Assembly: GCF_004010195.1 (NCBI RefSeq)
Contig: NC_057718.1
Span: 65,969,089-66,032,769, forward strand
From: Chiloscyllium plagiosum
Lineage: Eukaryota
Direction: 5' to 3'
Length of the DNA stretch: 63,681 nt
The number at the start of each line of letters is the position of its first letter. Position 1 is the stretch's first letter. The notes below the pieces were generated by a model. That model was not told the DNA's origin and searched no databases. It worked only from the letters and a program-made list of their open reading frames with translations. The position numbers and the translations under genes were made by a program. Shown here one piece after another: positions 4,788-42,097 of this stretch.

Positions 4788-4996
4788 GGAGAAAGTGAGG
4801 ACTGCAGATGCTGGAGATCAGAGCTTAAAAATGTGTTGCTTGAAAAGCACAGCAGGTCAGGCAGCATCAAAGGAACAGGAGAATCGACGGTTTGGGCATA
4901 AGCCCTTCATCAGGATTTCCTGAAAAAGGGCTTATGCCCAAAACGTCGATTCTCCTGTTCCTTTGATGCTGCCTGACCTGCTGCGTTTTTCCAGCA
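4788..4996. mobile_element. Fold-back (hairpin) mini-element made of two inverted Neptune-type PLE termini
   Basis: Inverted arms centred near 4916. Flanked by 14-bp direct repeat cagacgtttcgtta (4774-4787 and 4995-5008). Confidence 0.85.
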
Positions 4997-5033
4997 GACG
5001 TTTCGTTACCCTACTAGGTAACATCTTCAGTGG
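4995..5033 (-). ncRNA. Minimal type I hammerhead ribozyme motif (Poseidon-type PLE terminus)
   Basis: Minus strand reads CCA-CUGAAGA-U-GUUACC(UAGUAG)GGUAAC-GAAA-C-GUC-UG. The core is intact and stem II has 6 perfect pairs. Before the nested insertion, stem I was CCA/UGG. Confidence 0.8.
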
Positions 5034-5034
5034 T

Positions 5035-5850
5035 AAAAAACAATGACTGCAGATGCTGGAAACCAGATTTTGGATTAGTGGTGCTGGAAGAGCACAGCAG
5101 TTCAGGCAGCATCCGAGGAGCAGCAAAATCGATGTTTCGGGCAAAAACCCTTCATCAGGAATAAAGGCAGAGAGCCTGAAGCGTGGAGAGATAAGCAAGA
5201 GGAGGGTGGGGTGGGGAGAAAGTAGCATGGAGTACAATAGTGAGTGGGGAAGGGGATGAAGGTGATAGGTCAGGGAGGAGGGTGCAGTGGATAGGTGGAA
5301 AAGAAGATAGGCAGGTAGGACAAGTCATGGGGACAGTGCTGAGCTGGAAGTTTGGAACTAGGGTGAGGTGGGGGAAAGGGAAATGAGGAAACTGTTGAAG
5401 TCCTGGGGTTGAAGTGTTCCGAGGTGGAAGATGAGGCGTTCTTCCTCCAGGTGTCTGGTGGTGAGGGAGCGGCGGTGAAAGAGGCCCAGGACCTCCATGT
5501 CCTCGGCAGAGTGGGAGGGGGAGTTGAAATGTTGGGCCACGGGGCGGTGTGGTTGATTAGTGCGGGTGTCCCGGAGATGTTCCCTAAAGCGCTCTGCTAG
5601 GAGGCATCCCAGTCTCCCCAATGTAGAGGAGACCGCATCGGGAGGAACGGATGCAATAAATGATATTAGTGGATGGGAAGGTAAAACTTTGATAGATGTG
5701 GAAGGCTCCTTTAGGGCCTTGGATGGAGGTGAGGGAGGAGGTGTGGGCGCAGGTTTTGCAGTTCCTGTGGTGGCAGGGGAAGGTGCCAGGATGGGAGGGT
5801 GGGTTGTAGGGGGGTGTGGACCTGACCAGGTAGTCACGGAGGGAACGGTC
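5035..5850 (-). mobile_element. 5'-truncated Neptune-type PLE (Cys-rich linker, GIY-YIG, 3' terminal repeat)
   Basis: Minus-strand frames give LLAERFREHLRD...VAQHFNSPSHSAEDM and EEERLIFHLGTLQP. Homologous to the copies at 10722-12052 and 16440-17596. Confidence 0.85.
5129..5160 (-). ncRNA. Minimal hammerhead motif (Neptune-type terminus)
   Basis: Minus strand UC-CUGAUGA-A-GGGU(UUUU)GCCC-GAAA-C-AUC-GA. The core is intact but stem I is only about 2 bp. Confidence 0.7.
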
Positions 5851-7773
5851 GAAGCATTGCTGAAAATTCCTGCTTTCTATTTATATGTTTGGGTTTCTTT
5901 GGGTTGATGATGTCATTTCCTGTGGTGATGTTATTTCCTATGGTAAAGTCACTTCCTATTCCTTTTTTCTCAGGGGGTGGTATATGGGGTCTAACTCGAT
6001 ATGTTTGTTGATAGAGTTCCGGTTAGAATGCCATGCTTCTAGGAATTCTTGTGCGTGTCTTTGTTTGGCTTGTCCTAGGATGGATGTGTTGTCCCAGTCG
6101 AAGTCATGTCCTACCTTATCTGTATGTGAGGATACTATTGAGAGAGGGACATGTCTTTTTGTGGCTAGTTGGTGTTCATGTATCCTGTCGGGGAGAGTGG
6201 CTAGGGTTTCTGGACATGTTTTGTCTGCTTGTTTGGGTTTGTTGCTGAGAAATTGGCGGACTGTGTTCATTGGGTGCCCATTTTTTAATACGCAGTATAG
6301 GTGATTTTCCTCTGCTCTGCATAGTTTCTCTGTGCTACAGTGTGAGTTGGCTCGTTGAAATAATGTTCTGATGCAGCTTCGTTTGTGGGTGTTGGAATGA
6401 TTGCTTTTTGTAGTTCAATATTTGGTCTGTATGTATTGTTTTCCTGCAGACGCTGGTTTGAAGTTCCCCATTGGCTGTTTGCTCTACTATGACATCTAGG
6501 AATGGCAGTTTGTTGTTGCTTTCCTCCTCTTTGGTGAATTTTATGCCAGTAAGGATATTATTGATGGTCTTGAAGGTTTCCTCTAACTCATTTTGTTTAG
6601 TGATGACAAAGATGTCATCCACGTAGCAGACCCAAAGTTTGGGTTGGATGGTTGGCAGAGCTGTTTGTTCAAGTCTCTGCATTACTGCCTCTGCTAAGAA
6701 CCCTGATATCAGAGATCCCATGGGTGTTCTGTTGGTTTGTCTGTAGGTTTTGTTGTTGAAGGTGAAGTGTCTGATAAGGCATAGGTCCACTAGCTTGATT
6801 GGTCTGCAATTTAGAGCTAGCCTCAGTAATGATGACAGTGAAACCATAATTGATGGTTGTAAAAGTTTATTTGGTTCACTCATGTCCTTTACCTTTCCTT
6901 ACCATCCTTGCTTTACCTGACCCATATGCAGCTCCAGCTCCAAAGTAATTTGGTTGACTCTTAAACTTTTTCTGAAATTGCATAATTAATCACTCATTTG
7001 AAGGGCAGTTAGTGGTGAGTAATAAAATTTGGCTCCCAGCAATGTCGACATTATCATGAAAGAAATGTTGAAAACTACAAAACTATGAAGAAGGCACTGG
7101 AACATTAGATAGCTGGGAAATGTATCTTTTTAAAATGTTCTTGGGTTTGCAAATTCGTAAGAAAACTTTCCACACTCATAGTTTTTTTGGTTTATTTAAA
7201 TATACATAATTCTGATAGTTACAACATTTAATGTATAACTTCAAATTTTTGTGTCATTACTGTTTTTGAAGCTTATTCAAAATTTTTCAAACTTCTGTGG
7301 CAAATCTATTTGATATTTATTTAGTTAATATTTGTTTGTTACCTTTTCATCTCATTTACGAAAAATGCCATTCTCAATTATTCTTCAATGTTGCTTGCTA
7401 CTGAAAATCTTATTATTACTCCATGTTGCATCTAGTGTTTTAAACAATCCAGCACAATAAAATTTGAAGTGGTTAGGATGTGAGAAATCCCTCAGCTTCT
7501 GTTCGCTACAACCACTGTGCATGACATATCTGATTTGGAGTCTTGATGTGTACTGTCCATAACGACTAGTCGACTGATAGTCTTACCTATGTGGTTGCAT
7601 TTTCTACTGGCGTGGTGCTGTCCCAGTTGGGTGTTACTGCTTCAGTAGTAACTGATACTGAATGCTCAGGTTTTAAACATGCAGAAAATAAAGATACCTG
7701 GTGTAAATTAATTTAACAGTGGATGTATTTCAGTCAGTAGTTGTGATTAAAAATTGGCAAATAAAGAGGTCTC

Positions 7774-8029
7774 GAGGAAAGTGAGGACTGCAGATGCTGG
7801 AGGTCAGAGTCGAGAGTGTGGTGCTGGAAGAGCACAGCAGGTCAGGCAGCAGCCGGGGAGCAGGAGAATTGACATTTTGGATATAAGCCCTTCATCAGGA
7901 ATCATTGGACCTTCATCAGCTTATCCCAAAGCGTCAACTCTCCTGCTCCTCGGATGCTGCCTGACCTGTGCTTTTCCAGCACCATACTGTCGACTCTGAT
8001 CTCCAGCATCTGCCGTCCTCACTTTCTCC
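7774..8029. mobile_element. Fold-back mini-element (two full inverted Neptune-type termini)
   Basis: gaaagtgaggactgcagatgctggag at the left is mirrored by ctccagcatctgccgtcctcactttctc at the right. Confidence 0.85.
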
Positions 8030-9581
8030 AAGTATCTTGGGATGTTTTACAAGTAAAAGGCAGTTTACAAATATACGTTGTTGAAATTCCTCTGAAAACA
8101 AAAAATCTGTAATGTTCAATATTTCTGGCTTTAAGAATGAGAAGTGAATGTATTATTGATTAATCGTTTGCATCGGTATTTAAGGGGAAAACTTGTAATT
8201 CAGTTAATTTGGGGGCAAGTCTGATTTATAATTACTGCTAATCTGCAATATGGAAATAAAATACATTGTAACTATTCACTTTAATGAATTTAGCCAAATG
8301 AAAGTATTTAGCTAATGTTAAAGCAGATGCATATTTGATGAAATACTGTAGCGTTGTAGGCTCAGTTATTCAGTTGCTTTAGTTTCAAATTCCCTGGCTC
8401 AGCCAGCTGATTCCCATGGGAACACCTCAGCAGCTGCCCCAGAGGCTGCAGCTATCTATTTCTTCAAATTTGTCTCATTGTTGGTCTATTTCTTTCTTCT
8501 TATAGAATACCACGGTGCAGAAAGGGACTATTTAACCCACCAAGTCTGCCCAGCTCTTGTAATAAGCAATCGTATTAATCCCTCTCCCTGGGTCTTTCTT
8601 ATATATTTTTGCAATTTTTATTCTTATTTAAGTACTTAGTAAATTCTTCTTTCTTAATTATTATTGAATCTGTTTCCAGAGTTCTACATTTCAGCTCTAT
8701 TCAGATCCCATTCCTTATATCCTGTATAAATACGCTAACCTTTAATGTTCTCACCTGCTATTGCTCCAAACTGGAAATGTTTTCCCCCGATTTCCACTCT
8801 CCCTTCACCTGCATATTGTTTATCTCCAACTATTGCAATTCTTCCTTGTCTTTTGTCTTCATTTCTTTGGTAAGGCTATCAACTAATGTCCTCTAATAAC
8901 TCATATTGACTTGCACGGTGACCATTGTTACACTTCCTTCCACCTTGGTTTCTGTAAGAGTTCTATTCAGTTTAGCCAATGCCTTATCTCTATTCTGCCA
9001 ATACCAGAACCTTTTATACCAATTGCTTTGATATGTCTTTCCTTTTCTTCTGTGGACTTTCAACCATGGCTAACAAAGTTGCAGGCACTCCAATCCCAGA
9101 TACTGTCACTCTTGCCCCTTTTCAACCTTCTGTAACCACAATTGGATTCCTCTTGTCCTCACCACTAACCCCTCAAAGTCCTGTATTCAACGGACTATCC
9201 TCTGCCATTTCCACAGCCAAGATGTCATCACTGAGCATGTCTATTTTTTTTCCTTAGCAATTTGGCATTCCAAGTAACCCCTCATCTCTTTTTGTAATTT
9301 AGCCCCTCTCGTGCCATTGCAGACATTTCCTTTTTGTTTTTTTTCCCACCAAACTCAATTAAATATCTAATATTTTTCCTTGGTCTGGTGAAATTTATTA
9401 ATCTGAAATATTAACACTTACTTTCTTTCACCATAGAGGGTGCCAGACTTCAGAGCATTTCCAGGCTGATCTTTTGAACTCAGTCTTCATAAATACCAGG
9501 ATCATGTATACCTTGTTAACTATTTTAATGAGTTGTCTTGTTATCTTTAAAAGTGTAATTTTTTTTTCTTTTACTTCACAG

Positions 9582-9626
9582 TTCTACAAACATGTGGTTC
9601 AGAGCGTGGAAAAGTTTATTCAAAGG
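9582..9626 (+). CDS. SCAF8: SCAF8 internal coding exon (probably exon 3), CID domain: FYKHVVQSVEKFIQR
   Basis: Polypyrimidine tract plus CAG acceptor (ttttcttttacttcacag), GTAAGA donor, 45 nt, phase 0/0. Peptide matches the SCAF4/SCAF8 CID segment FYKHVVQSVEKFIQK as I recall it. Confidence 0.95.
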
Positions 9627-10721
9627 GTAAGAGTTTACGATTGTATAAAACTCAATATTGAATTGGATGTTTGTATATTTATGCATTAGTATCTCCTTTT
9701 ACAATTGGAACACCTTTGGTTCTATAATATTTCCATTTTTTGAGGTAACTTTGAGTGTTGAACTGTTAACGTTTTTGTGGGGTTTTTTTGGCCATTGATT
9801 GGTCTTCTAATATTTCTTTTTAATATAATCTATTGATATTACAAGTCTTTCATTGTGTTGGGTCATTTTCACATTTCTGATCTTTATTACTTCAAATTGC
9901 TGAGCATGCTTTATTTTGGACATCATACCGTTTATTATAATCTTCCCGTCTTCCATGCTAACTGCATCAGCATGATGGAGCTGGAGTAGTCTGCATAAAA
10001 GTTTTGAGGTTGAAACAAATTCCATTTGTTTTGGAGCAGTCTTACTCCAGAAAAACTGACCTTTGTATGCTGTGATGGGTGTGTGTATACACAGTGGTTG
10101 TATTACATTACTTGAGATGTTCACATTTAAATCAGGCAGTTGTCAAAACGTTATAGCCATTTCCTATATATAAAATGCCCAGTTATAGTGGACTAGGTAC
10201 ACTATTTGCTTAACAATAGGTGTTTAGTTACAAGTTAAAATTTTGATTTAAAAAATGCTGCTTTGATAAGTGCTACAAAATGCTGAAGCGGTTACCTGTG
10301 ATTACTTAACATTTGAATTTATTCTATTATTTTAGTTCAGTTTATTTCCTACCAGATCTTTATTGGATTAAGAAGGCAGCTCATCACCAACTTCTCTAGG
10401 GCAACTAGGGATGGGCAATAAATGCTGGACAAGCCAGCAACTCCACATCCCATGTTCATTTCTGACTTTGAATTCTCATCAAATGGTTCATTTGTCCTTC
10501 AGCTTCATTCCCAGTATGGTGCTTATCACTAGATTTCTATTTTCGTACTCATGTTAATTCCTTATATGTGGTCCAAATGTTTATGCTTTTAAACTTTACA
10601 GATGATTGGATCTCAGCTGCACAACAGGTGGATAAGAACTCTTGCACCTTAGATAAGAACACTGAGTAGTCACACTCTAGACTTAAACATTTTCTGATCC
10701 CATGGCTAAGGATGATGTACA

Positions 10722-12052
10722 GACGAAAGTGAGGGCTGCAGATGCTGGGGATTAGAGTGGAGAGTGTAGTGCTGGAAAAGCACAGCAGGTTAGGCAGCAT
10801 CCGAGAAGCAGGAAAATCGACGTTTCGGGCAAAAGACCTTCATCAGGAATAAGGCTGGGAGCCTCGGGTGGAGAGTCAAATAGGAGGTTAATGGGCTTGG
10901 GGGGAAGGTAGCTGAGAGTTCAAAAGGTGGATGGAGGTGGGGGTGATGGTGATGGGCCGGAGGGGAGGGTGGAGCGGATAGGTGGGAAGGAAGATGGGCA
11001 GGTCATGAGGGCAGTGCTGAGCTGGAAGGTTGAAACTGGGGATAAGGTGGGACAAGGTGGAATGAGGAAACTGGTGAAATCCACATTGATGCCATGGGAT
11101 TGGAGTGTCCCGAGGTGGGAGATGAGGTGTTCTTTCTCCAGGTGTCGGGTGGTAAGGAAGTGCCAATGGACGAGGCCCAGGACCTGCATGTCCTCGGCAG
11201 AGTGGGAAGGGGAGTTGAAGTATTTGACCACGGGGCGGTGGGGTTGGTTGGTGAGGGTGTCCCGGAGATATTCTCTGGAGCGCTCTGCGAGTAGGTGTCC
11301 TGTCTCCCCAATATAGAGGAGACCGCATCAGGAGCAATGGATACTGTAAATGATGTGTGGACAGGGCAGGTGAAACTTTGATGGATATGGAATGCTCCTT
11401 TGAGGCCTTGGATGGGGGTGGAGCGGGGAGGTGTGGGTGCAGGTTTTGCAATTCCTGTGGTAGCAGGGGAAGGTTCCCAGAGGGGAAGGTGGGTTGTTGG
11501 GGAACGTGGACTTGATGAGGTAGTCGCAGAGGGAACGATCTTTACAGAAAGCGGATGGCGTGGAGAGGGAACTATATCTCTGGTCTTGGGGTCCATTTGT
11601 AGTGGCAGAAAAGGTGGAGGATGATGCAATATATATGGAAGTTGGTTGGGTGGAAGGTGAGAACCAGGGGGTTCTGCCCTTGTTGCAGTTGGAGGGGTGG
11701 GATTCAAGGGTGGAGGTGCAGGAAGTGGATGAGATGTGCTGGAGGGCATCATCAACCACCTGGGAGGGGAAATTGCGGTCTTTTAAAAAAGGAGGCGATC
11801 TGGTGTGTTCTGTGGTGGAACTGGACCTTCTGGGAACAGATGCGGCGGAGGATTTGGGAATAAGGGATGGTGTTTTTACAGGAAGCAGGGTAGGAGAAGG
11901 TGTAGTTCAGGTAGCTGTGGGAGTTATTGGGTTTGTAGAAAATGTCATTGTTGAGTCGGTCATCGTTGATGGAGATAGAGAGGTCCAGGAAGGGGATGGA
12001 GGTGTCGGAGATGGTCCAGGTGAGTTTAAGGTCGGGGTGGAATATGTTGGTG
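10722..12052 (-). mobile_element. 5'-truncated Neptune-type PLE (RT C-terminus, Cys-rich linker, GIY-YIG), frameshifted
   Basis: GTFPCYHRNCKTCTH linker and YFNSPSHSAEDM motif. 3' terminal repeat ends in ...cctcactttcgtc on the minus strand. Confidence 0.88.
10817..10848 (-). ncRNA. Minimal hammerhead motif (Neptune-type terminus)
   Basis: Minus strand UC-CUGAUGA-A-GGUC(UUUU)GCCC-GAAA-C-GUC-GA. Intact core, palindromic ACGU, one mismatch in stem II. Confidence 0.7.
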
Positions 12053-14467
12053 ATTTATACAGTTCGTGGGTGAGTAATCCAATCTCCAGTGCAGTGAATA
12101 ACCAGGTTAACTTGTTCTTGAATCCAGCATGTACACTATTCATCACTGTGTGCTAGAGCTATTATCTGCTAAAAGAATAATAATATTTCTTCCTCCTTTT
12201 AGATAGGATACAAGTGTTTAAACTGATCTTCCCCTACCTATTAATCTGGAATAAAATTTCAATGGACTTATTATCCAATGCTTTAATTATGTTATAATCC
12301 TTTATCAGGGAAGCTTTAAGGCTTGCTGCTGTGAAATTAATAGAGCAAGGTCATTTACCCCACTTAAGTAGCTGAATTTACTTAATGTAGGAATCCTTTA
12401 AGCAGTTCTCCTTTGGACCTTTTGCGAAACTACTACATTATCTGCCCTGTGGGTGACTAAATATTGGGCACAGTGTTTCAGGTGCAGTCTCATCTGCAAC
12501 CTGTTTAATAACAAATCATCCATTTTTGTGTATTGAATGGTTCTGTTGATATATCCCAAAACTTTATGTAGACACAGAGATATGTGCAAAATATTCATTG
12601 TCAACCTATCATATAAAATTAAGTCTGAAGTCATAAGAGAGGTATGTTCCCTAACCAACTCTCCACACCACTTCTCAGTAATGGTACAGTAAATAGTATG
12701 AGACACTATATCTGTGTTGTGTATGTGTGTGTGTATGTGTAAAATTTGCAGTGATTTCACAAAGTGGATGTGATTGCCTGTTGACAGTTTTTTAATGAGG
12801 ATCATTTGCGCCTACTTCTATTATAGTAATGCACTTTGCCATTTTTTTCTGCTCACTCATTGACTTACTATTGAATTCTGTTGACCAGCTATTAGTACCA
12901 AGCCATTAAAAATGAAACGTTTGCTCTGCTGGTTTCTTAATTTTGGGTCCTCATTCTACCTATATTGTGGTACCAATGTGTATCATATCCTCCAACTTGT
13001 ACCCTACCTTGTTAGAATGTTCTGCAGCTACTTAGTGACGCCTCTGTTATTTCTTGATGTTTATGTATACTGTCGAATAATTGTGGGATGCTTTTGCACA
13101 AGTACCACCTTCACACCTGATGTAGTACAAAACTTTCCAAGCTTTTATTTTTACCCCATTATCAGAATTCATTAGAATAAGCAGAATTATTTAACAGCCC
13201 TCTCATTCTCTGTTTAAAAAAAAGACATGCTGTTGGGGCTTTTTGGCTAGCAGTCATCACGGCAGACGCAAGAATGCCAGAATTCAAAGGGAGCAACAGT
13301 TTATACTGTATGAGAAAAGAGTGCTGACTGGTTGGCAAATCACCTCTGATGAAGGCATTGTCATGGAAAATGTACCTGGAAGTTAGAATTAATTTTAAAA
13401 ATCTCTCTGTGACACTCTTGATTGCTTTTAAAGACACTACGTAGTGTTCTCTTTCGCACATTCATGTGATATAGGTATTGAGTAGAATTCATTCTCCTTC
13501 GGGGGATGTGAATCTCTGCTGTGTACTGCTGCAGTTCATGTCATGTAGGATGTGGGTCCAATGGCTGTTTTTGACCTAAACAATGTTAAATGCCCTGTGT
13601 TTTTGTAATTGCACTTGTGCAAATAAGTGGAATGTCATCCATCATATTACCCTCTGGTGCCTTGTAGGGGTGGTTGAAAGTCTGGGAAGTCTGGAGATCT
13701 GTCGGTCACCACAGAGTACCAGCCTTTGACCTACCTTTGCAGCTGCACTATTTATGTGGTTGATCTGAAATGCTCTGGAAAATGATGCTTGGAAATCCTG
13801 TGTCATTAAATATTGTGCAGAGATTTTGGAAATAGTTGTTTTTCAGGTATTGTTGTGTTAGATGTGTTACTTCTACATACCAGGCACAATTGCTTTGGTT
13901 ACAAATATTTCTGAACAATGTGGAATTGTTAGCAAACATATCAGAAGACATCCTAATTTCTGAGATTTTGTTGGAAGGGGGGTCATTAATGGAGCAATGG
14001 AAGATGGTTGGGCCTTGAACATTACTGTGATAAACCCCTGCCGTCATTACCTGATGCTCAAATGATTGGCCTTCAATGCAGACAACCATCTTCTTTTGTA
14101 TTAAGTATGTATGACTTTCACCAGTGAAGAGTTTTTCAGATTCCTGTTAACTTCAATTTTATTAGGGTTCTTTGATATCATATTTGGTCAAATGCAATCA
14201 TGATATCAAGGGCAGTCACTCTCACCTGAACACTGGGATTTGATACTTTTTGTTCGTATTTTGCTTGAGGCTGAAATGAAGCTTTGTGATCCAGTGAAAC
14301 CCTCCAAATATAGCAATTTGATGTAAATGAGTACCTTATTGGCCATTTCAGAGAGCACTTACGCATCACCCTATTGCTGTAGGTATATGATTGCATATAG
14401 ATTTCAACAGACTTGATCAGTTGAATTCCTTCCATAAAGAATATGTCATACCTGCTTCACACAACTT

Positions 14468-14657
14468 CAGGTCAGGTAGCATCTGAGGAGCAGGAGAATC
14501 AATGTTTCAGGCATAAGCCCTTCATCAGGAAAGGCCGATGAAGGGCTTATGCCCAAAACGCCGATTCTCAAGTTCCTTGGATGCTACCTGACCTGCTGTG
14601 CTTTTCCAGCACCACACTCTTGACTCTGATCCCCAGCATCGGCAGTCCTCACTTCCT
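14468..14657. mobile_element. Fold-back mini-element (Neptune-type termini)
   Basis: Arms inverted around aagcccttcatcagg-aaag-gccgatgaagggctt. The minus-strand hammerhead at 14499-14530 keeps CUGAUGA and GAAA. Confidence 0.85.
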
Positions 14658-15313
14658 TCTTCTATAACATCTTGTAAGGTCTTGCGCAACAATACTGATG
14701 CTAGCTTTTTGTTCCAGGTTTTATTGATTAAACTAACAAATTCTCCACCTATTATGGTGAGGTTTGCCCTGGTCTGTGTGGATTTGCATTATATCAACAT
14801 AATTACTGTCAGTTTTGTCATTGCGATTGATGATAATTTGATAGAGAGCGTAAACTTCAAGCTACATATAATGAAGAATAGCAATTAAATGCTTTTTTTT
14901 AAATTTGAGGTATGCTCCACTTCCAAAATGTAGTCTACTTTGACGGTACCGTATTTGATCAGAAAGGATACTATATTTATGTCATCATTGCACGTGTTAT
15001 ATTTTCTCAGAGTGAGGAATACACCAAAGAAACTATGATCTTTTATGAAAATATACAGAAATTATGTTATGAAGATCTGATCATTAATAACTCTTGAACA
15101 ATAACATTATTTGAATTTTTTGCCTAAAACTAATTACTGAAGGTGTTGGAATAAAACTTATTCTAATGATATTAGACTTTGCAGTAGCTATATGCTCAAG
15201 CAGTTTGCTTAAGTAAGATTCATCTTTTTAATGCGGTTTTAAAACATCTTTTTAAGATTGATATAAAGAATGTCTACTTGGCATATATTCAAGGTATCTT
15301 GACCGCTGACTTA

Positions 15314-15425
15314 CAATCTAGAGTGTGGTGCTAGAAAAGCACAGCAGGTCAGGCAGCATCCGAGGACCTGCTGTGATTTTCCAACATCATACTCTCAACT
15401 CTGATCTCCAGCATATGTCAGTCCT
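15314..15425. mobile_element. Fold-back mini-element with deleted centre
   Basis: gaaaagcacagcaggtc and gacctgctgtgattttc are inverted arms. Direct repeat cgctgactta at 15304-15313 and 15426-15435. Confidence 0.8.
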
Positions 15426-15612
15426 CGCTGACTTAGCATGACAAAATATCAGAAATTCTCAGCCATTGATACTGTAGATGTTACTATGTATAAGTTGACT
15501 TCTGAAACCTTGAAAAACACTCCCAAAAACTGGTTAATTCTATACCGAGTGTAGAAGTGAAGTACTGGCACGGGTGTCTGTTATTTTAAAGAATCAATGT
15601 CAGTCATCCAGT

Positions 15613-15701
15613 TAAAAATCTCACAATACCAGGTTATAGTCCAACAGGTTTATTTGGAAGCACTAGCTTTCAGTGCGCTGCTCCTTCATCAGGTAGCTGG
15701 G
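15613..15701 (-). mobile_element. Third-family hammerhead-bearing short element (probable PLE terminus)
   Basis: Minus strand UAC-CUGAUGA-A-GGAGC(AGC)GCACU-GAAA-G-CUA-GUG at 15661-15695. 10-bp direct repeat gtcatccagt (15603-15612 and 15702-15711). Related copies at about 3488-3595 and 31658-31820. Confidence 0.75.
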
Positions 15702-16439
15702 GTCATCCAGTGCAGCAATAGGCATGTCTTAAACTCTGAGGCATTTTCAAAACATTTTCACCTCTTTCTGAAGTCCCCAGTATTTCAGATAGCAGTCTTC
15801 AGCCAATTCAGTTCTCTAGGATATCACAAAACAGCAGAGACATTGAATGCTGCAAAGGCTATAGTGTTTGACAATGTTCTGACAATAGTAATGCAAATTT
15901 GAACTCTGGAAGAGGCTTCTCTCCTAGTCAAGCTGTTCTAATTCGATTACAACACTGGCATCAACCCGACAATGTGGAAAGTTACGCAGATATGTTCAGT
16001 CCTCAAAACTTTAACCCAGGCAATTATTGACTTATTAGTCTACTCTTGATAGTCAACAAATTAATGAAAGGGGTTATCAGTAGTGCTTCCAAACTACATC
16101 TCCGAAGTAACCTGCTCCCTGATGTTCACTTTAGGTTGCCTTAGGACCACTCAGGGCCTAACCTCGTTACAACTTGGTCTAAACCTGTATAAAAGAACTG
16201 AACTCCATAGGTGAGGTGAGAATGAATGTTTTAAGTTGTATTTGCCCTAATAATGGCACTAAGAAGTCCTAATGAAACTGTAGCTAATCGGAATTGGGAG
16301 GAGGGCATAGGTGAGTTTAAAGGAGCTGACTCTTAACTGGTTGGTGTTATATAAAGCACATAAGTTGTTGAAGGTCAGTTATGTCAGTCCCAGGGTATCA
16401 CTGCAGTATTTTCTCCATGTAATGACCTAGACAACTTCA

Positions 16440-17596
16440 CCAACAAGGAGGTTGAGCAATTCATCAACTTCACCAACAGATTCCACCCTGACCTTAAATT
16501 TACCTGGACCATCTCTGACAGCTCCCTCCCTTTCCTGAACCCCTCCATCTCCATTAATGATGACCGACTTGACACCGACATTTTTTACAAACCCACCAAC
16601 TCCCACAGCTACCTGAATTACACCTCTTCCCACCCTACCTCCTGCAAAAATGCCATCCCGTATTCCCAATTCCTCCGCCTCCGCTGTATCTGTTCCCAGG
16701 AGGACCAGTTTCACCACAGAACACACCGGATGGCTTCCTTCTTTAGACCGCAGTTTCCCTTCCCACGTGGTATAAGATGCCCTCCAACGCATCTCGTCCA
16801 CATCCCGCATTTCTGCCCTCAGAGCCCACCCCTCCAACCGTAACAAGGACAGAATGCCCCTGGTGCTCACCTTCCACCCTACCGACCTTTGCATAAACCA
16901 AATCATCCGCCAACATTTCCGCCACCTCCAAAAAGACCCCACCACCAGGGATATATTTCCCTCCCCACCCCTTTCTGCCTTCCGCGAAGACTGTTCCCTC
17001 CGTGACTACCTGGTCAGGTCCATGCCCCCCTACGACCCATCCTCCCGTCCTGGCACCTTCCCCTGCCACCGCAGGAATTGCAAAACCTGCGCCCACACCA
17101 CCTCCCTCGCCTCCAACCAAGGCCCTAAAGGAGCCTTCCACATCCATCAAAGTTTTACCTGCACATCCACTAATATCATTTATTGTATCCGTTGCTCCCG
17201 ATGCAACGGATGCCTCCTAGCAGAGCGCTTTAGGGAACATCTCTGGGACACCTGCACCAATCAACCACACCGCCGCGTGGCCCAACATTTCAACTCCCCC
17301 TCCCACTCTGCCAAGGACATGGAGGTCCTGGGCCTCCTTCACCACTGCTCCCTCATCACCCAATGCCTATTCACTGTTCACTCCTCCCTGACCTATCACC
17401 TTCATCCCCTTCCCCACTCACCTATTGTACTCTATGCTACTTTCTCCCCACCCCCACCCTCCTATGATTTATCCCTCTACCCTTCAGGCACTCTGCCTGT
17501 ATTCCTAATGAAGGGTTTTTGCCCGAAACATCGATTTTACTGCTCCTCGGATGCTGTCTGAACTGCTGCGCTTTTCCAGCACCACTAATCCAGAAT
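16440..17596 (+). mobile_element. 5'-truncated Neptune-type PLE inserted in an older LINE
   Basis: ORF 16854-17561 reads PLVLTFHP...GTFPCHRRNCKTCAH...FTCTSTNIIYCIRCSRC...RFREH. The upstream sequence encodes the RT thumb region. The terminal hammerhead at 17503-17534 has a mutated core (CUAAUGA). Confidence 0.88.
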
Positions 17597-17950
17597 AGAC
17601 TTAACCAACTTCAGGCCACAAAAGATCAGAAATATGGATCTTTACTGAGGATGCACAATGATTAGCACCATTCACAAAGACTTAAATTGAAGCCAAAACT
17701 GGACAGTGTCCATGGTTGGGGATGATTTGTGACAGAAATGTAATTTTCACAAAAGTATCAAGCAATGACCATCTCTTACAACAGAGAATTCAACTACCTA
17801 CTGTCTACTTTCAATGCTATAACCATTACTAAATCCCACACTATCAACATTCTATTTGTTAACATTGACAAGAAATAGAACTGGACCAGCCACGTACTGT
17901 AAATAGTGTGACTACAAGAGCAGGTCACAATCTGGGAATTCTGTGGTGTG

Positions 17951-25230: not shown

Positions 25231-25299
25231 ATAAACAACAACATTCCCTGATTTCAGTGAAATATTCTCTATTCCTTCCCATCTCATTCTAATTGTCTT

Positions 25300-26294: not shown

Positions 26295-26466
26295 TTAGGA
26301 TTCCTACAGCCCAACAAGTTCACACTGACCCTCTGAAGTGTAACCCACCCAGACCCATTCCCATATAACTCTACATTTCACCCTGACTAATGCACACATC
26401 CCTGAACACTATGAGCAATTTAGCATGGCCAGTTCACCTAACCTGCATACCTTTGAGTTGTGGGAG
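26295..26466 (-). mobile_element. 5'-truncated V-SINE
   Basis: gcaatttagcatggccagttcacctaacctgca is the reverse complement of the V-SINE body. Confidence 0.8.
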
Positions 26467-28100: not shown

Positions 28101-28674
28101 TATTTTGAACAAGAGAAAAATTCTCCTGAGTCAATATGTTTTTCCAAAATCCCTCTCTTTTCTCAAATTGGCTGCTACATTTCCTGCATTACAATAAAGG
28201 CTATACTTGAAAAGTATGTCACTACCTCAGAACTTCTCCATTACTTTACAGCTAATGAAAGATGGAGTCATAATAATATAATAAAAGAATAATATTGCAA
28301 GTTCTTTAAAGCAGGCCTAAAAATGTAAATTTTACCTAACATTATTTTCTAGTTTTATATGTTTGCTGCCTGGAGCTTTTTGGTCTTGAAGGCATGAGAA
28401 ATTCATTCATGTGAAGCTTGCAACTTTATTTTCCTGTCCTCTAGTTACGTTTTGTTCAGCATCTATGTGCAGCTGTGGCACTTAAGCAGTCCAGAATGTT
28501 ATTGACTTTTGATTTCATTTCTTCTGTTTTTTTTTACTTAGTCTCAATTCATCTTCCACTGGAATCCTCATTCATATCTTTGTATTGCTAGCTTGAATTC
28601 CAAAGTACTCCTTGTTGGTATCCCACAAGTCTGTAAACCTGAGATAATCCAAAATTGCCCATTTCTTAACTTGC

Positions 28675-28824
28675 TGAAAATGTGTTGCTGGAAAAGCGCA
28701 GCAGGTCAGGCAGCATCCAAGGAACAGGATTCTCCTGTTCCTTGGATACTGCCTGACCTGCTGCGCTTTTCCAGCAACACATTTTCAGCTCTGATCTCCA
28801 GCATCTGCAGCCCTCACTTTCTCT
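28675..28824. mobile_element. Fold-back mini-element (Neptune-type termini, ribozyme centre lost)
   Basis: Near-perfect inverted arms of about 55 bp. 15-bp direct repeat catttcttaacttgc (28660-28674 and 28825-28839). Inserted in an L2-like fragment. Confidence 0.88.
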
Positions 28825-30432
28825 CATTTCTTAACTTGCAACAAGTCCTGTTCACCATCGCCCCCTGCTGACGTACATTGGCCCCAGTCAAACAACATCT
28901 TGATTTTGTTTCTCTTCTTTATCAAACTTCTTGAGCAGCCCTGATTTTAGTCATTGTATCATTGGTGGCTGTACTTTTGGTTGTCTCAGCCATAAATTCT
29001 GAACTAGTCTCCCTACATCTATTTGCCACTGTACTTTAGTTCTTGTCTTTGAGATGCTGCTTAAAACTTACCTCTTTAACTAATATCTTCTTCTGTAGCT
29101 TGGTATGCCATTCTTTATAATATAATGCTTCTGTGACGCAGCTTAGTATTTTTTATGTTAAAGCTGCAACATAAATATTACGTTGCAATTTGGCCTCCCT
29201 GTTGTTCCAAGTCCTTTTTAAGTTAATTCTTTTTCAAAGTTCTTTTCAGTCCATTTACAATTCACTGAATCACAAAATTGTTGCAGTGCAGAAAGATCAC
29301 TGCATGGTGAATGATTTATTGTATAAAATGCAAGGCATGAGTATGAACCTAAATAGTTAGGACAATGAAATAAGTCCACTAAAAAGAGAAGAAAGAGGTG
29401 AAAGAACACACGAGAAAATAAATTTGTAAATGGTGAGCATCAAAACTAATTATATGCATGCTGTATATTCAGAAACGCTCTGTGATAAGCCCTGGAGAAT
29501 GCCATGAAATATCTACAATTATTCATTGAATGATTTATTTTAAAATAATAATGTTCTATAACTTTATTATTCTTCAAATGTAAACGTTTTTATATAGACT
29601 TTTTAAACTTGATAAAGTTTATCAAAATTGTTTTCCTTCATTTAGTTGTCCAAAATTAACATTATTTTTGTTCATTGAGCACCCCCAAAATACACGCTTA
29701 GTTCCCTAAGATAAACACTGTCTTCCTTTTTCTATTATGCTGCAACCTATTATCAGTCTGTGCTGCCAATCACTATTATTGAAATATTGTCATTTCAATG
29801 AGCTTCTGATCACGAAACTGTAAAATTTTGAGATGGGAGTGTAGCACTTAATAGTGTAGAAACGTTGCAGATGCTGAAAACAAAATATTGTAACAAAGAA
29901 ATGACTCCTAGTTGCTATGGTATAATCTTAATATTTGGAAATATTTCCTATGTGAGAATAAAATGAAATGATCAGCAGCAGCACTGAGGGATATGTTTGG
30001 CCTTCCATGCTGAAAACTAGAAAGAATTTCCTTTTTAAAACTCTTCAATTTAATCTAGTTTTTCTATACATTTGCTTTGAAGTGTTAATATTCTTAGGTT
30101 TAATGAGTTTTTTTTCCCCCTTTTTAAAAATTCTCTAGCCCAAGAGAAGAGTTTTCTACATTTAGGATGTTTATAGAAATCTGTGCTGAAATTGCTTTTG
30201 ATTTTTACTGTATCTAGGAACGTACTCAAATTCAGTTAGCAGCTAACTTGAATGGCACAAACAAAATTCACAACGCTCTATGTGGAGAGTCTTGGACTTA
30301 AAACCCACAACATGCCATTCCTGACATTTTCCCAGTATATAGATTGGTTTTGTATATAGCTATAATATTCCAAAGTAAATTGGACATTATCTTATTGAAG
30401 TGCTTTATTTGTATTTAAATATATATCCACAG

Positions 30433-30594
30433 TGTAAACCAGAATACAAAGTCCCAGGGCTGTATGTTATCGACTCAATTGTGCGTCAGTCTCGTCATCA
30501 GTTTGGTCCAGAAAAGGATGTGTTTGCGCCCAGATTTTGCAAGAACATCAATACAACTTTCCAAAACTTGTACAAATGTCCTGCTGATGACAAG
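30433..30594 (+). CDS. SCAF8: SCAF8 internal coding exon (probably exon 4), CID domain: CKPEYKVPGLYVIDSIVRQSRHQFGPEKDVFAPRFCKNINTTFQNLYKCPADDK
   Basis: ccacag acceptor, GTATGT donor, 162 nt, phase 0/0. Contains the CID hallmark LYVIDSIVR. Confidence 0.97.
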
Positions 30595-31657
30595 GTATGT
30601 GGTTTTCATAGTCTGTATAGTATATGCACTAAATTTAATGCAATAAAACTAAACTAATGATATGAATTCTTCAGTTTTTTTTAAATTTAATGAATCCAGC
30701 TTGGCTGATGCTACGTTTTGAACCAAACCAGCTAATTCACTTATTTATTAAGTATAGTCTGGATGAAGTCTGGATAATTTAGAATTTGAATCTTAAGCTT
30801 TGATTGAGCATAAAGTTAGTTTAGCACAGTTTGAAATTTGCTAGGTTTGAGATGAATTTCTGTTTAGAGCACTAACTTTTGGAAGTGAATTCGGAGAAGT
30901 GGAGAATGAGCAGTAACAAATGCTGGATTTCTGACCAGATGAGGAAATTATGGTTCTGATATTGGTGCTTACATCTGTAGACAGATTACAATATATTTAT
31001 AAAAGTGAAATTGATGGCAGAAGACAACTGGATACTACTTGAATTTTTAAAAAAAAATCAGATTCTTGAATCTGAAATTCTCCCCCTAAGGATATTTTAG
31101 TCAACCCTACAGCATGTGGACTTCAACGGTTTAAGAAGCCAGCTCACCATCACCTTCTTGAGGGCAACTCAGATCAGGCAATAAATGCTTGCCAGCCAGC
31201 AAAGCCCACATCCCATGCCTGAATTTTTATAAAGTAGCAACTTTGAGAAAATTAACTTTTTGCAGTGAAATGAATAATGCTTTAGTCCTTTCTCATTGTT
31301 TTAAAATGGTGCAGTAATAATATGAGATAAATCTGAAAAGCCTATTAAAAATCTTTCAGCAGATTATGTGGACTAAAAATTATTAAAATTTGTGTCATTG
31401 TATACATAGTAACTTAGATAAAATAGAACTTATTTCATTAGGAAGGAGACTAATGGTTGCCCATGTTAATTCAAGAAATGTAGTACACAAAAACAACTGT
31501 ATTTCTGGGTGTGAGGTTTTTACCAATTACAGTCCCCCACTTACCAACCCATCTGTCCAAAGAATAAGCTTTGTATGTGATTTATAATTTTAATAAAGGC
31601 ATTTTTTTTTTCCATTTGCTTGTCTTGTTGTGTACCACTGTAGTTTTAAAAGAAAAT

Positions 31658-31820
31658 GGTGTGGAGATGCTGGTGTTGGACTGGGGTGGACAAAATTAAA
31701 AATCTCAACACCAGGTTATAGTGCAGCAGGTTTATTTGGAAGAACAAGCTATCGGAGCAGCGAAAGATTGCGCTTCCAAATAGACTTGCTAGGCTGTAAC
31801 CTGGTGTTGTGATTTTTAAC
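31658..31820. mobile_element. Fold-back mini-element of the third terminus family
   Basis: caacaccaggttatag...tttggaag is mirrored by cttccaaa...ctgtaacctggtgttg. 13-bp direct repeat tttaaaagaaaat (31645-31657 and 31821-31833). Confidence 0.82.
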
Positions 31821-32699
31821 TTTAAAAGAAAATCACCATCTTGGTGTAAACCCTCGTCCAGTGCCATTATAACTCATGATTTTCACCTTATTTTGATTTA
31901 GTCACACCTATGTCTAGGTATAAATGGGTCAGGCAAAGCTGTTGGTTCCTGGCCACAGCCAACATTTTTGCATCTCTCTACTGTCTGACGACCAGCTGGA
32001 GATCTCTACCAGTAGTCAAATGCCAGTCCATCTTGGGTCCCTCTCCTAAGTCTACTGGGAGTCTATTGCAAAATCCTCTGGGTATGCTGTAATAATAGGA
32101 GTTTGGTGAAGCAGCAAAGCCAGTTGAGCTTTTCTTTAAGAAAAGATGACAGATGAAATGGCAGGCTATTCTGAGTATTTTCTTAATTTCAGTATTGAGT
32201 ATAAAATCCCAGAAATTCTTCTTGTAGGCATCCAATTTACTTTTTTTTGGGCAATTTTCAAATTCCAAGTTTGACAAACATGTAGGTAAGTAAAGAGCCT
32301 GTTCACTTTGTAAAGTCCAAATCATTTTCAGTTGGTTGAAAATTAGTGCTGGTCCCCTACTTTCACATTGTCTGTTGCTTCCTGGACATTGCTTATCTGG
32401 ACAGTTTAATTAATGTCCTCTGATGTCGCTTTGATTGGTATAAGTATCTGTTGGTTATTAGTGGTCTTCTGTTACAATTTATTTTGTTTTCTTGATGTTT
32501 ATACTTAGTCCCACTCTTTCACCTTGATTACTGAGTTGATAAGCTGTTGCAATCCTGTGTGCTGTCTCACGCAAGTGTTCAGAGATAAGCAGTTATATAA
32601 TTAATGTCTTAAATCACTAAATAATATGCTGGGCTGATTTAGACAAGTTTAACTGTAGTGGAAATATTGAATTAGTTCCTGGGCAATCTGACAGCATCC

Positions 32700-33250
32700 A
32701 CTAGTGGAATAGCAGTTTTTCTTGATAGAAGTCCATACATCGTGGACTCCAGTGAGTGAAATTACTTACGGAAGCGAAATTTGCAAATCATTTACGCAAG
32801 TTACCATGGGAAAAGGGTATTATGAAGAGTTTCAATTGGTTAAACGAGATTCCACAAGTTGACATCATCGTATTCATGGGCAACATGAATGCACAAATTG
32901 GTGCAGACAGGACTGAATTTCAGAATTTCTAGGCCACTGTGGAAATGAAAGATGCACAAATAATGGAGATCACTTTGTACAGTTTGTTCCACAATCTCAA
33001 GTTTACTCTTTAACATCTACAAAACCAGATGAGCTTTGAATGCCAGCAGAACTCCAATCAAATATCCATTAAGCACTGTTAAATAATGTTAGGGTACATT
33101 GTGCAACAGACATTCGGTGGTGACCATTTGGTAATGGCATAGATCACGCTGAGGACGCAGAACAGTCAGTCAGATGTGGGAAAGATTTTGATATCAGCAA
33201 GCTTGGTGGTGATAAAACTAAGAGCAGGTTTGGTGTCCTGGCTGATCTCA
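32700..33250 (+). mobile_element. Highly degenerate RTE-like LINE endonuclease fragment
   Basis: gacatcatcgtattcatgggcaacatgaatgcacaaattggt translates to DIIVFMGNMNAQIG, resembling the APE GD.NA.IG motif. Confidence 0.45.
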
Positions 33251-34522: not shown

Positions 34523-34870
34523 GTGACACAGTGGCTCAATGATTAGCACTTAGCCTCAAAGCGCCAGGGAGTCGATTTGCTTCTACAGTCAGGCAACTGT
34601 AAATGGAGTTTACACATTGTCCCCATGTCTGCGTGGGTTTCTTCCCAGATGCTCTGGTTTTCTGCCACAGACCAAAGATGTGTAGGTTAGGTAGATTTGG
34701 CATGCTAAATTGCCCATAGTGTCCAGGGATGTGCATGGGTGTATTATCCATGGGAAATGCAGGGTTACAGGGACAGAGTAAGGAGGTGAATCTAGTTGGG
34801 ATTCTTTTCAGAGGATCGGTGTGGACTGATGGGTCAGATGGCCTACTTGCACATTGTAGGATTTCTAGGA
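34523..34870 (+). mobile_element. V-SINE (diverged)
   Basis: tRNA-like head plus V-domain plus tail. Confidence 0.82.
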
Positions 34871-35099
34871 GTTTTGTCCACCTCTTGGATACTTCTGCCA
34901 CATTCTGTGATCTGGAGGCATTGCAGTTATACCCAAATGGGATCATAATAAGAAAATGTTTGGGAACCACCGGACCTGTTGTTCCTGATTCTCAGAATTG
35001 TTACTGCAGAAAGGAGGCTATTTAGCCCATTGTGTTTACTCTGATTCTTCAAATGAGCATTATGACTTGGTGATTTGCCTGATTTTTCCCAATTTATTA

Positions 35100-35302
35100 G
35101 GAGAAAGTGAGGACTGCAGATGCTGGAGAAGTCTGAATCGAAAAGGGTGACACTGGAAAAGCAGAGCAGGTCAGGCACCATCCGAGGAGCAGGAGAGTCG
35201 ACAATTTGGGCATTCTTGATGAAGGGCTTATGCCCAAATGCTCAACTCTCCTGCTCCTCTGGTGCTTCCTGACCAGCTCTGCTTTTCCAACGCCACTCTT
35301 TT
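35100..35302. mobile_element. Fold-back mini-element (Neptune-type termini)
   Basis: The left arm is complete from gagaaagtgaggactgcag. The right arm is inverted and contains a degenerate ttgatgaagggcttatgcccaaa core. Confidence 0.8.
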
Positions 35303-38300: not shown

Positions 38301-38901
38301 GGAAAAGGTAGTAAAAATCTGGTGCAGCCCACTGTCTCTTCCTCTAAAAAAACAACTGTCCACACCTACTGTTTCTTGTCATTCAGCCAATGTTACCACT
38401 GTTCTTGTTATTGCATGTGCTTCAACTTACTTGCAAGCCTATTAATTAGCACTTGATAAAATGCCTTTTAGAAGTCCACAGAGACTAAATCAAACACACT
38501 ACCATTATCAGCCCTATCTGTTTTCATTTCAAATGAAAAACCTCACTCAATTAGTAAAAGGATTTGCTTCCTGTGATATAGCATGGTATATAATAATCTG
38601 GGTACCCTGCCATTTTTCTTGAGTCAACGTACAAATGCTTTTGAAATGATATGTCAAAAATGGTTTGTATACTACTGAAAAATATTAACTTCCTCATATG
38701 GAAAAGAGAGAGTTTACTTTGAGAAGCACATCTTAATTACAGGTAAGCACTGACGTTTATAATGAGCAGAGGTAAACAGGTTTTTGTTTTAGGGATTTCA
38801 GTTCATTCTTTGTGAAGTTTTGGTATAATTCAGTGTGTATTGGCTAAATATCTGGTGATTATTAGTAGCTCTAATATTAGGTTGATATGTGTGTTTTACA
38901 G

Positions 38902-39061
38902 AGTAAAGTAGTGCGGGTACTGAACTTGTGGCAGAAGAATGGAGTGTTCAAAAGTGAGATCATACAACCACTTCTGGACCTAGCAACTGGGATTCCGCCA
39001 CCATCTGTCGCCCCTGCTGTTGCCAGTACTACTGCAGCAACTGTGAGCAGCAACACACCAG
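38902..39061 (+). CDS. SCAF8: SCAF8 internal coding exon (probably exon 5), end of CID: SKVVRVLNLWQKNGVFKSEIIQPLLDLATGIPPPSVAPAVASTTAATVSSNTP(G)
   Basis: ttttacag acceptor, GTAGCC donor, 160 nt, phase 0/1. The GIPPP...SNTPG tail is SCAF8-like rather than SCAF4-like. Confidence 0.96.
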
Positions 39062-40507
39062 GTAGCCATCTAGTAACTTTAGCTTAAAATAACATATATA
39101 TCATTCAGAAGTAATACAGAAATAGTTTTGGGATTGAATAATATGTATATTATGTGGACGATCAATCCCATACAATTTATCGTTTGATAAAGCAGTCATG
39201 CAGAACAGATGTTATGAAAACATAGTTCACAGTGAAAGCACTGGAACCACAGCCTTAATCATGTATTAATATTTCAACTTTAAGTGAACACTGAGAATCT
39301 TTGGATTAGATCTACTTTGTCCCATGATCCTCCTTGTATCAATCTACCTGTTACTTAGATAAAATGTATGCCCCAACAATGACTGTTCCATTGTTACTTT
39401 GCTTGAGGCTAAACATATGACCATTCTGATTAATATTTGTGCTGGACTATGCTGGTAGACTGTAGAATTTTTGAAAAGTTCTTTTTCATGGTAAAATTGT
39501 TAAGAACATAACTGTTTCCATTGTTTTTGTTTTTGAGCACTTTGAATGTTCTTTAGAAAAATATGACTTGAAAAACTCCATCAATTTTTGTTGTAAATGC
39601 TACTGCCAGTGATCAAATTAGGAATGGCATAATAGAACAGTTGATGTCAGTGTTGATGGGGAGCTAGAAATGGACCCACATTTCTGGTTGGCAATTTCCT
39701 CAGAAATTAAACTCTGAACTTATAGCTTGTTTTCTGTAGCAATTAATAATTCTTTAATACAGAACTTAAGTATTGCTGAAAATAGAAATATTTTCCAAGT
39801 TGTTTCTCACACTTATCAGGACAAATGCAAGAATGCCCAAATTTCAGTGTACACTACATGTGAAAAGTGTGTCAATTGTTTGGTGAGTCGACTGTGGTCA
39901 TAGCATTGCCATAGAAAAGCAGTAGGGAACTATAGTCTTCCCAAACTCGAGGTATCTCATAGAAGCTGCTAGGCTTTAATATTTTCCTGTTGGTTGCAGG
40001 AATTGTGTCCCTGCATTTGAATAAGCCAAGTTGAGCTTGACTGATTATTTTAAATTGGTTGTTAGTGTGGCTATTCGCACACTCACCGAATCAAATTGAA
40101 TTGTAGATGTTTTGTTGTAAACTGTTTGCATATGTCTGTAGTCTGCCTGTTACAAAGTACTGAAGGAGCATGCTGTTTGGTGCGATCAATTGTTAGGACA
40201 TAAAGTATAAGAATCCAGAAACATTACAGTGCATTGGAGGCTATTCAGTCCATTTTGCTTAGTATTACACTCCAAGTGAAATTAATGCATAATGTTGATT
40301 TTTTTTGATTGGGAGAATGCCATTTTAGTCTGAAGGCAGCACGTTTGTTAGCAAATGATTCTCGCAAATTTGAACGATAATTCAAGCAATCCATTTCAGC
40401 CTGCAGCAACACTGTGTGGGTGGCACTTTTCACCAACTGGACTTATTTTGAGATTGCATCCAAAGTAGAAAGTTGGGAAATGACTAAGCATGTGGCTTAT
40501 ATTCATA

Positions 40508-41845
40508 AGATGATAAGATAGAGGAGCAGAATTAGACCATTCAGCCCTTTGTGCCTACTCCGCCATTTGATCATGACTGTTATGTTTCTCAACCCACTTC
40601 TCCTGCCTTCTCCTCATAACACTTGATCCCCTGACCAATCAAGATCTACCTATCACTGTCTTAAATACACTTAGTGACTTGGCCTCCATAGCCTCTTGTG
40701 GCAATGAGTTCCACAAATTAATCACTATCTAGCTAGATAATTTCCTCCTCATCTCCGTTCTAAAGGGTCATACCTTCACTCTGTGGCTCTGCCCTCGAAT
40801 CTACTCTCTCTTCCTAGCAAACATCATCTCCACATCCACTCTATCAGCATTTTGTAAATTTCAGTGATTACCACCTCTCATCAAGACCCAAAGACCTCAC
40901 CTCTTCATTAGCAGGATCATTGTAAACCTCCTCTGGCACCCCTCCAACCACAGCACATCCTTCCTTAGATGTGGGGCCCTAAAACTGCTCACAGTGTTCC
41001 AAATGCAAACTGTCCAGAGTCTTATAGAGCCTCATCAGTAAATCTCTGCTCTTGTATTCTAGCCCTCTTTAACTCAATGCTAACATTTCATTTACCTTCA
41101 CAACTGTCAACTAAACCTCCATGTTAACCGTAAGAGAAATTTGAACTAGGCTGCTAAGTCCCTTTGTGGTTCAGGTTATCAAAGCCTTTTCCCATTAAGA
41201 AAATATACTGTGCTTTTATTCTCCCTACCAAAATGCACAACCTCTCACTCCCCCATGTTGTATTCTATCTGCCACTTTGCCAATTTCCTAGCCTGTCCCA
41301 ATTCTTTGTGCAGCCCTTCCTACCTCCTCAACGCTACCAGTCTCTCCTCCTATCTTTCTGACATCTGTAACTTAGCAACAATGCCTTTGGTTCCTTCATC
41401 CAGATCATTAATGTATAATGTGAATAGTTGTGGTCCAACACTAACCCAGTGGAACTCTGCTTTTCACTGGCTGCGGTCCTGCAAAAGACCCTTTTATTAC
41501 ATTCTGTGCCTTCTGCCAGTCAGCCAATCCTCTATCCATACTACTACCTTGGCCCCTAACACAGTGGGCTTTGATCTTATTTAGCAGCCTTCTGTGTGAC
41601 CCATTGTCAAAGGCTGTTGTGGAAATCCAAAATGAGTGCATTCACTGGTTCTCCTTTGTCTAGCTTGCTCATTACCTCCTCGAAGAATTTTAACCGGTTT
41701 GTCAGGCATGATTCCCATTGACAAAACCTTTCTGACTCAGCACTATTTTATCATGCATTTCCAAGCACTACATAATCTCATCCTTAATAATGGACTGTCA
41801 AAATCTTATCAATGGCCATGGTCTGGCTGACCGCCCTATAATTTT
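40508..41845 (-). mobile_element. CR1-clade LINE RT plus 3' fragment
   Basis: AFD..SHRRLLNKIKAH.VRG motif on the minus strand, with a cataagat/gataagat tail. Confidence 0.8.
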
Positions 41846-41982
41846 CTGTCTTCTGACAGGCAGTGTTGGTAAAGAGAATCTGGATGTGCTGCATTTCTAG
41901 AAAGCATTTGATAAGAAACTACAGGAAAGAAAATTGGAGCTCATGGTGTAAGAGATAACATAATTGCATGGATAGATATTTT

Positions 41983-42097
41983 AAGATTAGAGTGGTGCTG
42001 GAAAAGGAGGAGCAGAATGCTGCCTGACCTCTGTGCTTTTCCAGCACCACTCTAATCTTGACTCTGATCTCCAGCATCTGCAGTCCTCACTTTCGCC
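41983..42097. mobile_element. Fold-back mini-element with deleted centre, inserted in a CR1 fragment
   Basis: aagattagagtggtgctggaaaag and cttttccagcaccactctaatctt are perfectly inverted. Imperfect direct repeat tagatattt/tagaaattt. Confidence 0.8.

Follow-up and report, generated by a model that had tools for sequence, protein, structure and literature searches.

The closest described counterparts of the structures reported here are insertions of endonuclease-bearing Penelope-like elements (EN+ PLEs), which, as described in Arkhipova et al. 2013 (PMC3846280), Craig et al. 2021 (PMC8557442), and PMC8969392, canonically place their termini head to head, with one arm 30-40 nt shorter than the other, a target-site duplication (TSD) of variable length around the whole unit, and palindromes or microhomology at the junction. 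In the account given in PMC8557442, an inverted, 5'-truncated copy is accompanied by a 30-40 bp tail at one end, and both that paper and PMC8969392 describe the tail as an extension often found at one end only, while for rotifer PLEs PMC3846280 gives an inverted pseudo-long terminal repeat (pLTR) that is 37 bp shorter, a unit TSD of 8-10 bp, and junction palindromes. How PLEs form inverted termini is presented as an open question in PMC3846280 and PMC8557442. Here, we describe eight hairpins in a 63,681-nt stretch of the genome of the shark Chiloscyllium plagiosum (NC_057718.1, positions 65,969,089 to 66,032,769; hereafter, the window) that are miniatures of this insertion pattern. We consider it likely, with a probability of about 0.78, that each hairpin is a one-off, dead-on-arrival integration product of an endonuclease-bearing PLE, built anew at each site.

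Other described systems share some of these features. Among the PLE hammerhead ribozymes of metazoans, those of Schistosoma mansoni include opposite-strand pairs 100-700 bp apart (Cervera and de la Pena 2014, PMC4209133), whereas the shark arms abut. The hammerheads described in that paper have the minimal type I motif, palindromic 15.2-16.2 positions, and scattered truncated PLE ends in common with those described here, but in the shark families the ribozyme core is decayed or missing in all 16 hairpin arms. For the Poseidon PLE of the anole, the in vitro work of Frangieh et al. 2024 (PMC11167929) describes two reverse transcriptase (RT) start sites one tail apart, with the tail between them, and both target strands nicked and extended; the ribozyme lies in the pLTR, its cleavage is dispensable, uncleaved RNA serves as the principal substrate, and RNA-seq showed no ends at the cut. 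The non-LTR (long terminal repeat) retrozymes of Li et al. 2026 (bioRxiv 10.64898/2026.07.22.740005) are likewise protein-free, derived from PLE pLTRs, equipped with a type I hammerhead, and found in a cartilaginous fish, but as described there, they are head-to-tail tandem units with complete ribozymes, whereas the hairpins are head-to-head and incomplete. The Tandem Repeats Finder (TRF) output for the window contained no head-to-tail retrozyme array. In a literature search whose reach was limited for subscription journals and for Repbase and Dfam entries, nothing turned up that describes a PLE class consisting of hairpins alone, stubs of this kind in sharks, or ribozymes of shark PLEs.

All counts below refer to this one window, of which 62,812 bases are called. 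Seven of the hairpins belong to one family (A), and the eighth, at 31658, has a different terminus (family B). Positions within family A arms are given relative to the predicted ribozyme cut, with the copy at 10721 as the reference; the cut itself is a prediction from the minimal-hammerhead rules in PMC4209133. The hairpins are as follows.

4788..4995, family A hairpin: left arm full, right arm to +49; inner ends at -30/-31, both at the ribozyme front edge; sited in a family C PLE, within its ribozyme core; TSD of 14 bp (4774-4787 / 4995-5008).
7774..8029, family A hairpin: both arms full; inner ends at -32/-17; no TSD above chance.
14468..14659, family A hairpin: left arm to +33, right arm full; inner ends at -37/-26; no TSD above chance.
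15314..15426, family A hairpin lacking the ribozyme core: inner ends at +13/+28; short arm stops at the tail boundary, about +62 with the TSD excluded; TSD of 10 bp (15304-15313 / 15426-15435).
28675..28824, youngest family A hairpin: arms identical at 56/57 positions; right arm from the predicted cut (0), left arm from +5; short arm to +59; TSD of 15 bp (28660-28674 / 28825-28839).
31658..31823, family B hairpin: short arm missing its terminal 33-34 nt; junction within stem II of the ribozyme; TSD of 13 bp (31645-31657 / 31821-31833).
35100..35301, family A hairpin: inner ends at -13/-32; short arm to +58; no TSD above chance.
41983..42097, family A hairpin lacking the ribozyme core: short arm to +58; junction downstream of the cut, with inner ends at about +30 to +38 / +18 (the left arm, which has probably undergone an internal loss, may reach about +5); 9-bp repeat with one mismatch, near chance.

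All eight hairpins listed in an earlier note on this DNA are present at the starts given there, with lengths of 113-256 bp (approximately 208, 256, 192, 113, 150, 166, 202, and 115 bp in positional order), for a total of 1402 bp or about one per 8 kb. The inverted termini are arranged head to head in 8/8, and where columns are shared, identity between sister arms ranges from 76% to 100%. The description in that note of each as a ribozyme-bearing terminus plus its inverted copy holds for the inverted termini, but not for the ribozyme, as the core is complete in 0/16 arms, nor for a single family, as 31658 belongs to family B. The minimal hammerhead motif is complete in the unpaired copies at 10721 and 15612; no Rfam family reached its gathering score, and it is from the motif in these two copies that the ribozyme is called. 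Three of the eight hairpins were folded as RNA, and their energies lay well below those of shuffled sequences (z = -18.3, -4.3, and -6.5).

The PLE identity of the arms follows from unpaired copies of the same termini elsewhere in the window.

5032..5850, minus strand: long family A copy with a GIY-YIG remnant, ribozyme, and tailed terminus.
10721..12053, minus strand: long family A copy with an RT thumb/GIY-YIG remnant, intact ribozyme motif, and tailed terminus; the coordinate reference.
16400..17597, plus strand: long family A copy without a tail (to +61), with an RT and GIY-YIG remnant and a CX4CxxC linker.
2821..2909, plus strand: unpaired family A stub without a tail, from -27 to +62; 8-bp direct repeat.
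15612..15701, minus strand: unpaired family B stub without a tail; complete ribozyme motif; exact 10-bp direct repeat.

The family A terminus caps all three of the longer pieces bearing RT/GIY-YIG remnants, which bears out the PLE origin proposed for the arms in the earlier note. The best protein match of family A, at 83% identity, is a PLE protein labelled Chiloscyllium punctatum, followed by whale and zebra shark, which marks the DNA as shark-type. For family A, a C-x4-C-x2-C linker is present in the frame at 16776 and in P0001-P0004; a CX2-5CxxC linker between the RT and the endonuclease is described as defining Neptune elements, and is given to Nematis as well (PMC8557442). By its linker motif, family A therefore fits a Neptune-type PLE and differs from the Poseidon element of the anole. 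When nine PLE frames were compared with Pfam, the sole match was to RVT_1, in family C only. For family B, there is no copy with an open reading frame (ORF) within the window, and its assignment to PLEs is by ribozyme motif and tail only. The window thus provides, for the EN+ PLE pattern, the link to RT and GIY-YIG sequences in family A, head-to-head termini, a tail, TSDs, and a minimal hammerhead; one difference from published insertions is that the copies here are cut to 24-135 nt with no ORF between them.

At their outer ends, full family A arms reach +91 to +98, and the short ones stop at +49, +33, about +62, +59, +58, and +58, so that four of six lie at +58 to +62, within a 6-nt interval (P ~0.001). 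The unpaired copies at 2821 and 17480 stop at +62 and +61, respectively. The short arm of the family B hairpin lacks 33-34 nt and has the same end as the solo copy at 15612. A segment of 33-40 nt is therefore absent from 5/7 short arms, and unpaired copies stop at either point. One arm is shorter in 7/8 hairpins, as the earlier note had observed in general terms, the exception being 7774 with its two full arms, and the asymmetry is the published PLE tail.

Exact direct repeats of 14 bp (4788), 10 bp (15314), 15 bp (28675), and 13 bp (31658) flank four of the eight, all four as previously noted, and none of 600 random position pairs attained 10 bp exact. The range of 9-15 bp proposed for the TSDs stands at 10-15 bp for these four copies, but its lower limit does not, as the 9-bp repeat at 41983 contains a mismatch and was equalled by 16/600 random pairs. 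By the same comparison, 7774, 14468, and 35100 have no flanking repeat above chance. Of the unpaired stubs, 2821 has an 8-bp repeat (3/600 random pairs) and 15612 a 10-bp repeat. For 4788, the sequence that is left after taking out the hairpin and one copy of the repeat shows a gap-free alignment over the junction with each of the two other family C copies compared. The 14-bp repeat is single in these two paralogues and was therefore duplicated on insertion, confirming that this TSD arose when the hairpin inserted. TSDs here reach 13-15 bp, as opposed to 8-10 bp in the rotifer elements of PMC3846280. Variable TSDs of 10-15 bp, together with arms that are PLE ends, support the earlier suggestion of retrotransposition rather than DNA transposition.

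The junctions differ in all eight hairpins and include microhomologies of 0-2 nt, 1-nt fillers, a 17-nt filler, and, in 31658, a junction in stem II; this supports the branch of the earlier proposal in which the hairpins are insertion by-products. The 17-nt filler of 7774, at 7903-7919, repeats part of the left arm. Such templated repeats are typical of templated end-joining. Sister arms share non-majority states in 7/7 family A hairpins, some of them private to one hairpin (three in 35100 and one in 14468), and the three 35100 variants are common to both arms and present in no other copy of the window. Either both arms of a hairpin come from a single source or they were later converted. Because sister arms share variants and the junctions all differ, the hairpins were probably made afresh, each in its own insertion event.

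The position of the turn-around, said in the earlier note to fall always at or near the ribozyme, lies inside it in 5/8 hairpins and at the predicted cut in 1/8 (28675), but 13-38 nt downstream in the remaining two (15314 and 41983). In 15314, 28675, and 41983, nothing of the core is left upstream of the predicted cut. Eight of 14 family A arms cross the cut and extend 13-37 nt upstream of it, five stop downstream, and one begins at the cut, where 0.9 would be expected by chance; from these numbers, we tentatively infer that the RNA template was mostly uncleaved, which agrees with the dispensable cleavage of the anole element. Six of the 14 inner ends lie between -37 and -26, at the core's front edge (C3 being at -28), none lies beyond -37, and the solo copy at 2821 starts at -27. 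We would hypothesize that the template RNA begins at the ribozyme front edge. A match to YYANWYY, which we take to be the initiator consensus, places its A at -32 and is present in 2/3 long copies.

In the mechanism that we propose, the GIY-YIG domain would make staggered nicks, and the RT would prime cDNA at both nicks on the RNA of one source, starting at the tail end on one strand and at an internal site one tail-length in on the other. Both cDNAs would be no longer than about 135 nt and would be joined end to end through 0-2 nt of microhomology or a short filler. As a variant, one cDNA could prime itself, as has been proposed for PLEs in PMC3846280, with the endonuclease trimming at the tail boundary to give the same product. 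More tentatively, the cDNAs may stop at the ribozyme front edge, either where the RNA begins or where the RT stalls on the ribozyme fold. In the anole element, the tail region also lies near the RNA 5' end; with the same arrangement here, stubs and hairpins could both be explained by short run-off cDNAs.

Several observations weigh against the interpretation of the hairpins as one-off integration products. The short arms of 4788 (+49) and 14468 (+33) miss the tail boundary, and 7774 carries two tails. In three of the eight hairpins, no flanking repeat exceeds chance, and in a fourth the repeat is close to the chance level. The clustering of inner ends reaches only P ~0.015, in an interval picked after seeing the data, and the initiator-like motif recurs by chance at 1.25% per base, or about every 80 nt. 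A loop that reads TTAT in the hairpin arms and in the solo copy at 2821 reads TTTT in all three long copies, and the direct parent of the hairpins, autonomous or not, must therefore be outside the window. Finally, the idea that the arm encodes the N-terminus of the ORF gained no support in three tests: a profile of 27 full-length relatives gave a best E value of 0.45, anchored scoring of the arm as an ORF start placed 0/18 frames below p 0.13, and a direct protein search for an ORF start in the arm yielded 0/70 candidates.

Among the alternatives, the one that survives best is a replicating class: entire hairpins would be transcribed, and PLE proteins acting in trans would retrotranspose them with their junctions copied; we regard this as improbable. 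It gains from the high density of hairpins (eight in 62.8 kb), from the report that pLTRs suffice in cis for mobilization in trans (PMC3846280), from an intronic location that supplies transcription, and from the lack of any long copy of the loop-TTAT subfamily in the window. It suffers from the fact that 0/21 pairs of family A hairpins share a junction, yet with seven family A copies only types at a frequency of about 50% or more are ruled out (P 0.06), and a junction type at 20-40% is compatible with the data (P 0.58-0.16). In this window, 8/8 junctions differ and lend no support to the replicating class raised in the earlier note, but they exclude it only as a dominant type. The hairpins also stem from several subfamilies and two families, and there is no excess of A-to-G changes (6 A>G versus 6 T>C among 53 private changes), a comparison of low power. 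It is equally doubtful that a protein-free, MITE-like class of retroelements, with the loop-TTAT subfamily as its vehicle, has some of its masters among these hairpins, whose intronic transcripts would be re-inserted with intact junctions by the PLE RT/GIY-YIG.

Still less probable is that, as a general rule, cDNA snaps back or is joined at the ribozyme-cleaved end of the RNA. The right arm of the youngest copy, 28675, does begin at the predicted cut, within a 2-nt microhomology, but the counts given above (8/14 arms crossing the cut, five stopping downstream, and a single arm at the cut, as expected by chance) contradict this as a rule, as does the use of mainly uncleaved RNA by the anole PLE (PMC11167929). 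The rule suggested in the earlier note is not borne out here.

It is very unlikely that the hairpins are fold-back artefacts of assembly or library preparation, or rearranged single stubs. Two near-perfect family C fold-backs, at 46783-47860, do abut an N gap, but the arms of 6/7 family A hairpins differ by 2-24% and lie far from N gaps, and four hairpins are enclosed whole by exact TSDs. The family C (Poseidon-like) PLE in question, at 46736-48030, contains ORF-internal fold-backs of 83 and 87 nt (95% and 99% identity), both adjoining the N gap at 47079-47625, which are either fold-backs formed far from the ribozyme or an assembly effect at the gap edge.

Miniature inverted-repeat transposable elements (MITEs) have a TSD of fixed length and matching terminal inverted repeats at both ends. 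Short, non-coding, inverted arms with direct repeats would suit MITEs of a DNA transposon that had captured a PLE end or had terminal inverted repeats similar to one, but this reading is largely refuted by TSDs of 10, 13, 14, and 15 bp, by outer ends that are unequal in 7/8, and by the terminus itself, which also occurs in unpaired form and at the 3' end of RT/GIY-YIG ORFs.

The hairpins, a miniature and highly abundant version of the published pattern, have value as a data set, as their start and stop points are readable and, in large numbers, could separate twin priming from self-priming and reveal whether the RNA 5' end is where cDNA stops.

The hairpins also lie among the exons of a host gene. 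CID-domain matches were obtained in Pfam for 2/119 frames tested, PDB matches name SCAF8 and SCAF4, and tblastn with 52/150 relatives placed exons at approximately 9580, 30430, 38900, 55100, 56400, and 61570, all on the plus strand, with splice sites present at the first three.

9582..9626, plus strand: host exon, SCAF4/SCAF8-type CID domain (approximately residues 37-54).
30433..30595, plus strand: host exon, CID domain (approximately residues 54-108).
38902..39061, plus strand: host exon, end of the CID domain.

The whole window is probably inside this SCAF4/SCAF8-type gene, of which at least six exons lie between 9582 and 61650. Six hairpins lie between exons, and 4788 and 7774, which precede the first detected exon, are probably intronic too, as that exon starts near residue 37. 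Because the hairpins are intronic and a fold-back pairs on either strand, it is plausible from the sequence that they form double-stranded RNA (dsRNA) in pre-mRNA, and an intronic density of about one per 8 kb would make them an extensive source of short dsRNA in the pre-mRNA of the shark. Inverted Alu pairs are a comparable source of intronic dsRNA in primates. The earlier suggestion that each ribozyme would be masked by its own antisense arm is moot, as no arm retains an intact core.

The sense terminus, at 14581-14612 and in equivalent arms, contains a branch-point, a pyrimidine tract, and CAG, like a splice acceptor, and arms on the plus strand could act as cryptic acceptors unless paired. 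PLEs are described as retaining introns near the ribozyme (PMC4209133). In a nested cluster at 4727-6898, a family C element took both the 4788 hairpin and the 5032-5850 copy within about 30 nt of one another, which hints at PLE targeting of other PLE ends. A pattern scan for further copies yielded none in metagenome contigs and none in viral contigs; in genome contigs, it returned no shark loci and four bacterial loci, which were taken as chance and discarded. A partial and decayed family B stub that lacks both ribozyme core and TSD is present at 3505-3560, and an isolated hammerhead-like core motif at 13346-13369, to which nothing else in the window is similar, may be due to chance. Unrelated to the PLE hairpins, an inverted pair of a short interspersed nuclear element (SINE)-like repeat occurs at 51866-52337, with 80 nt matching at 88% and the two copies 312 nt apart.

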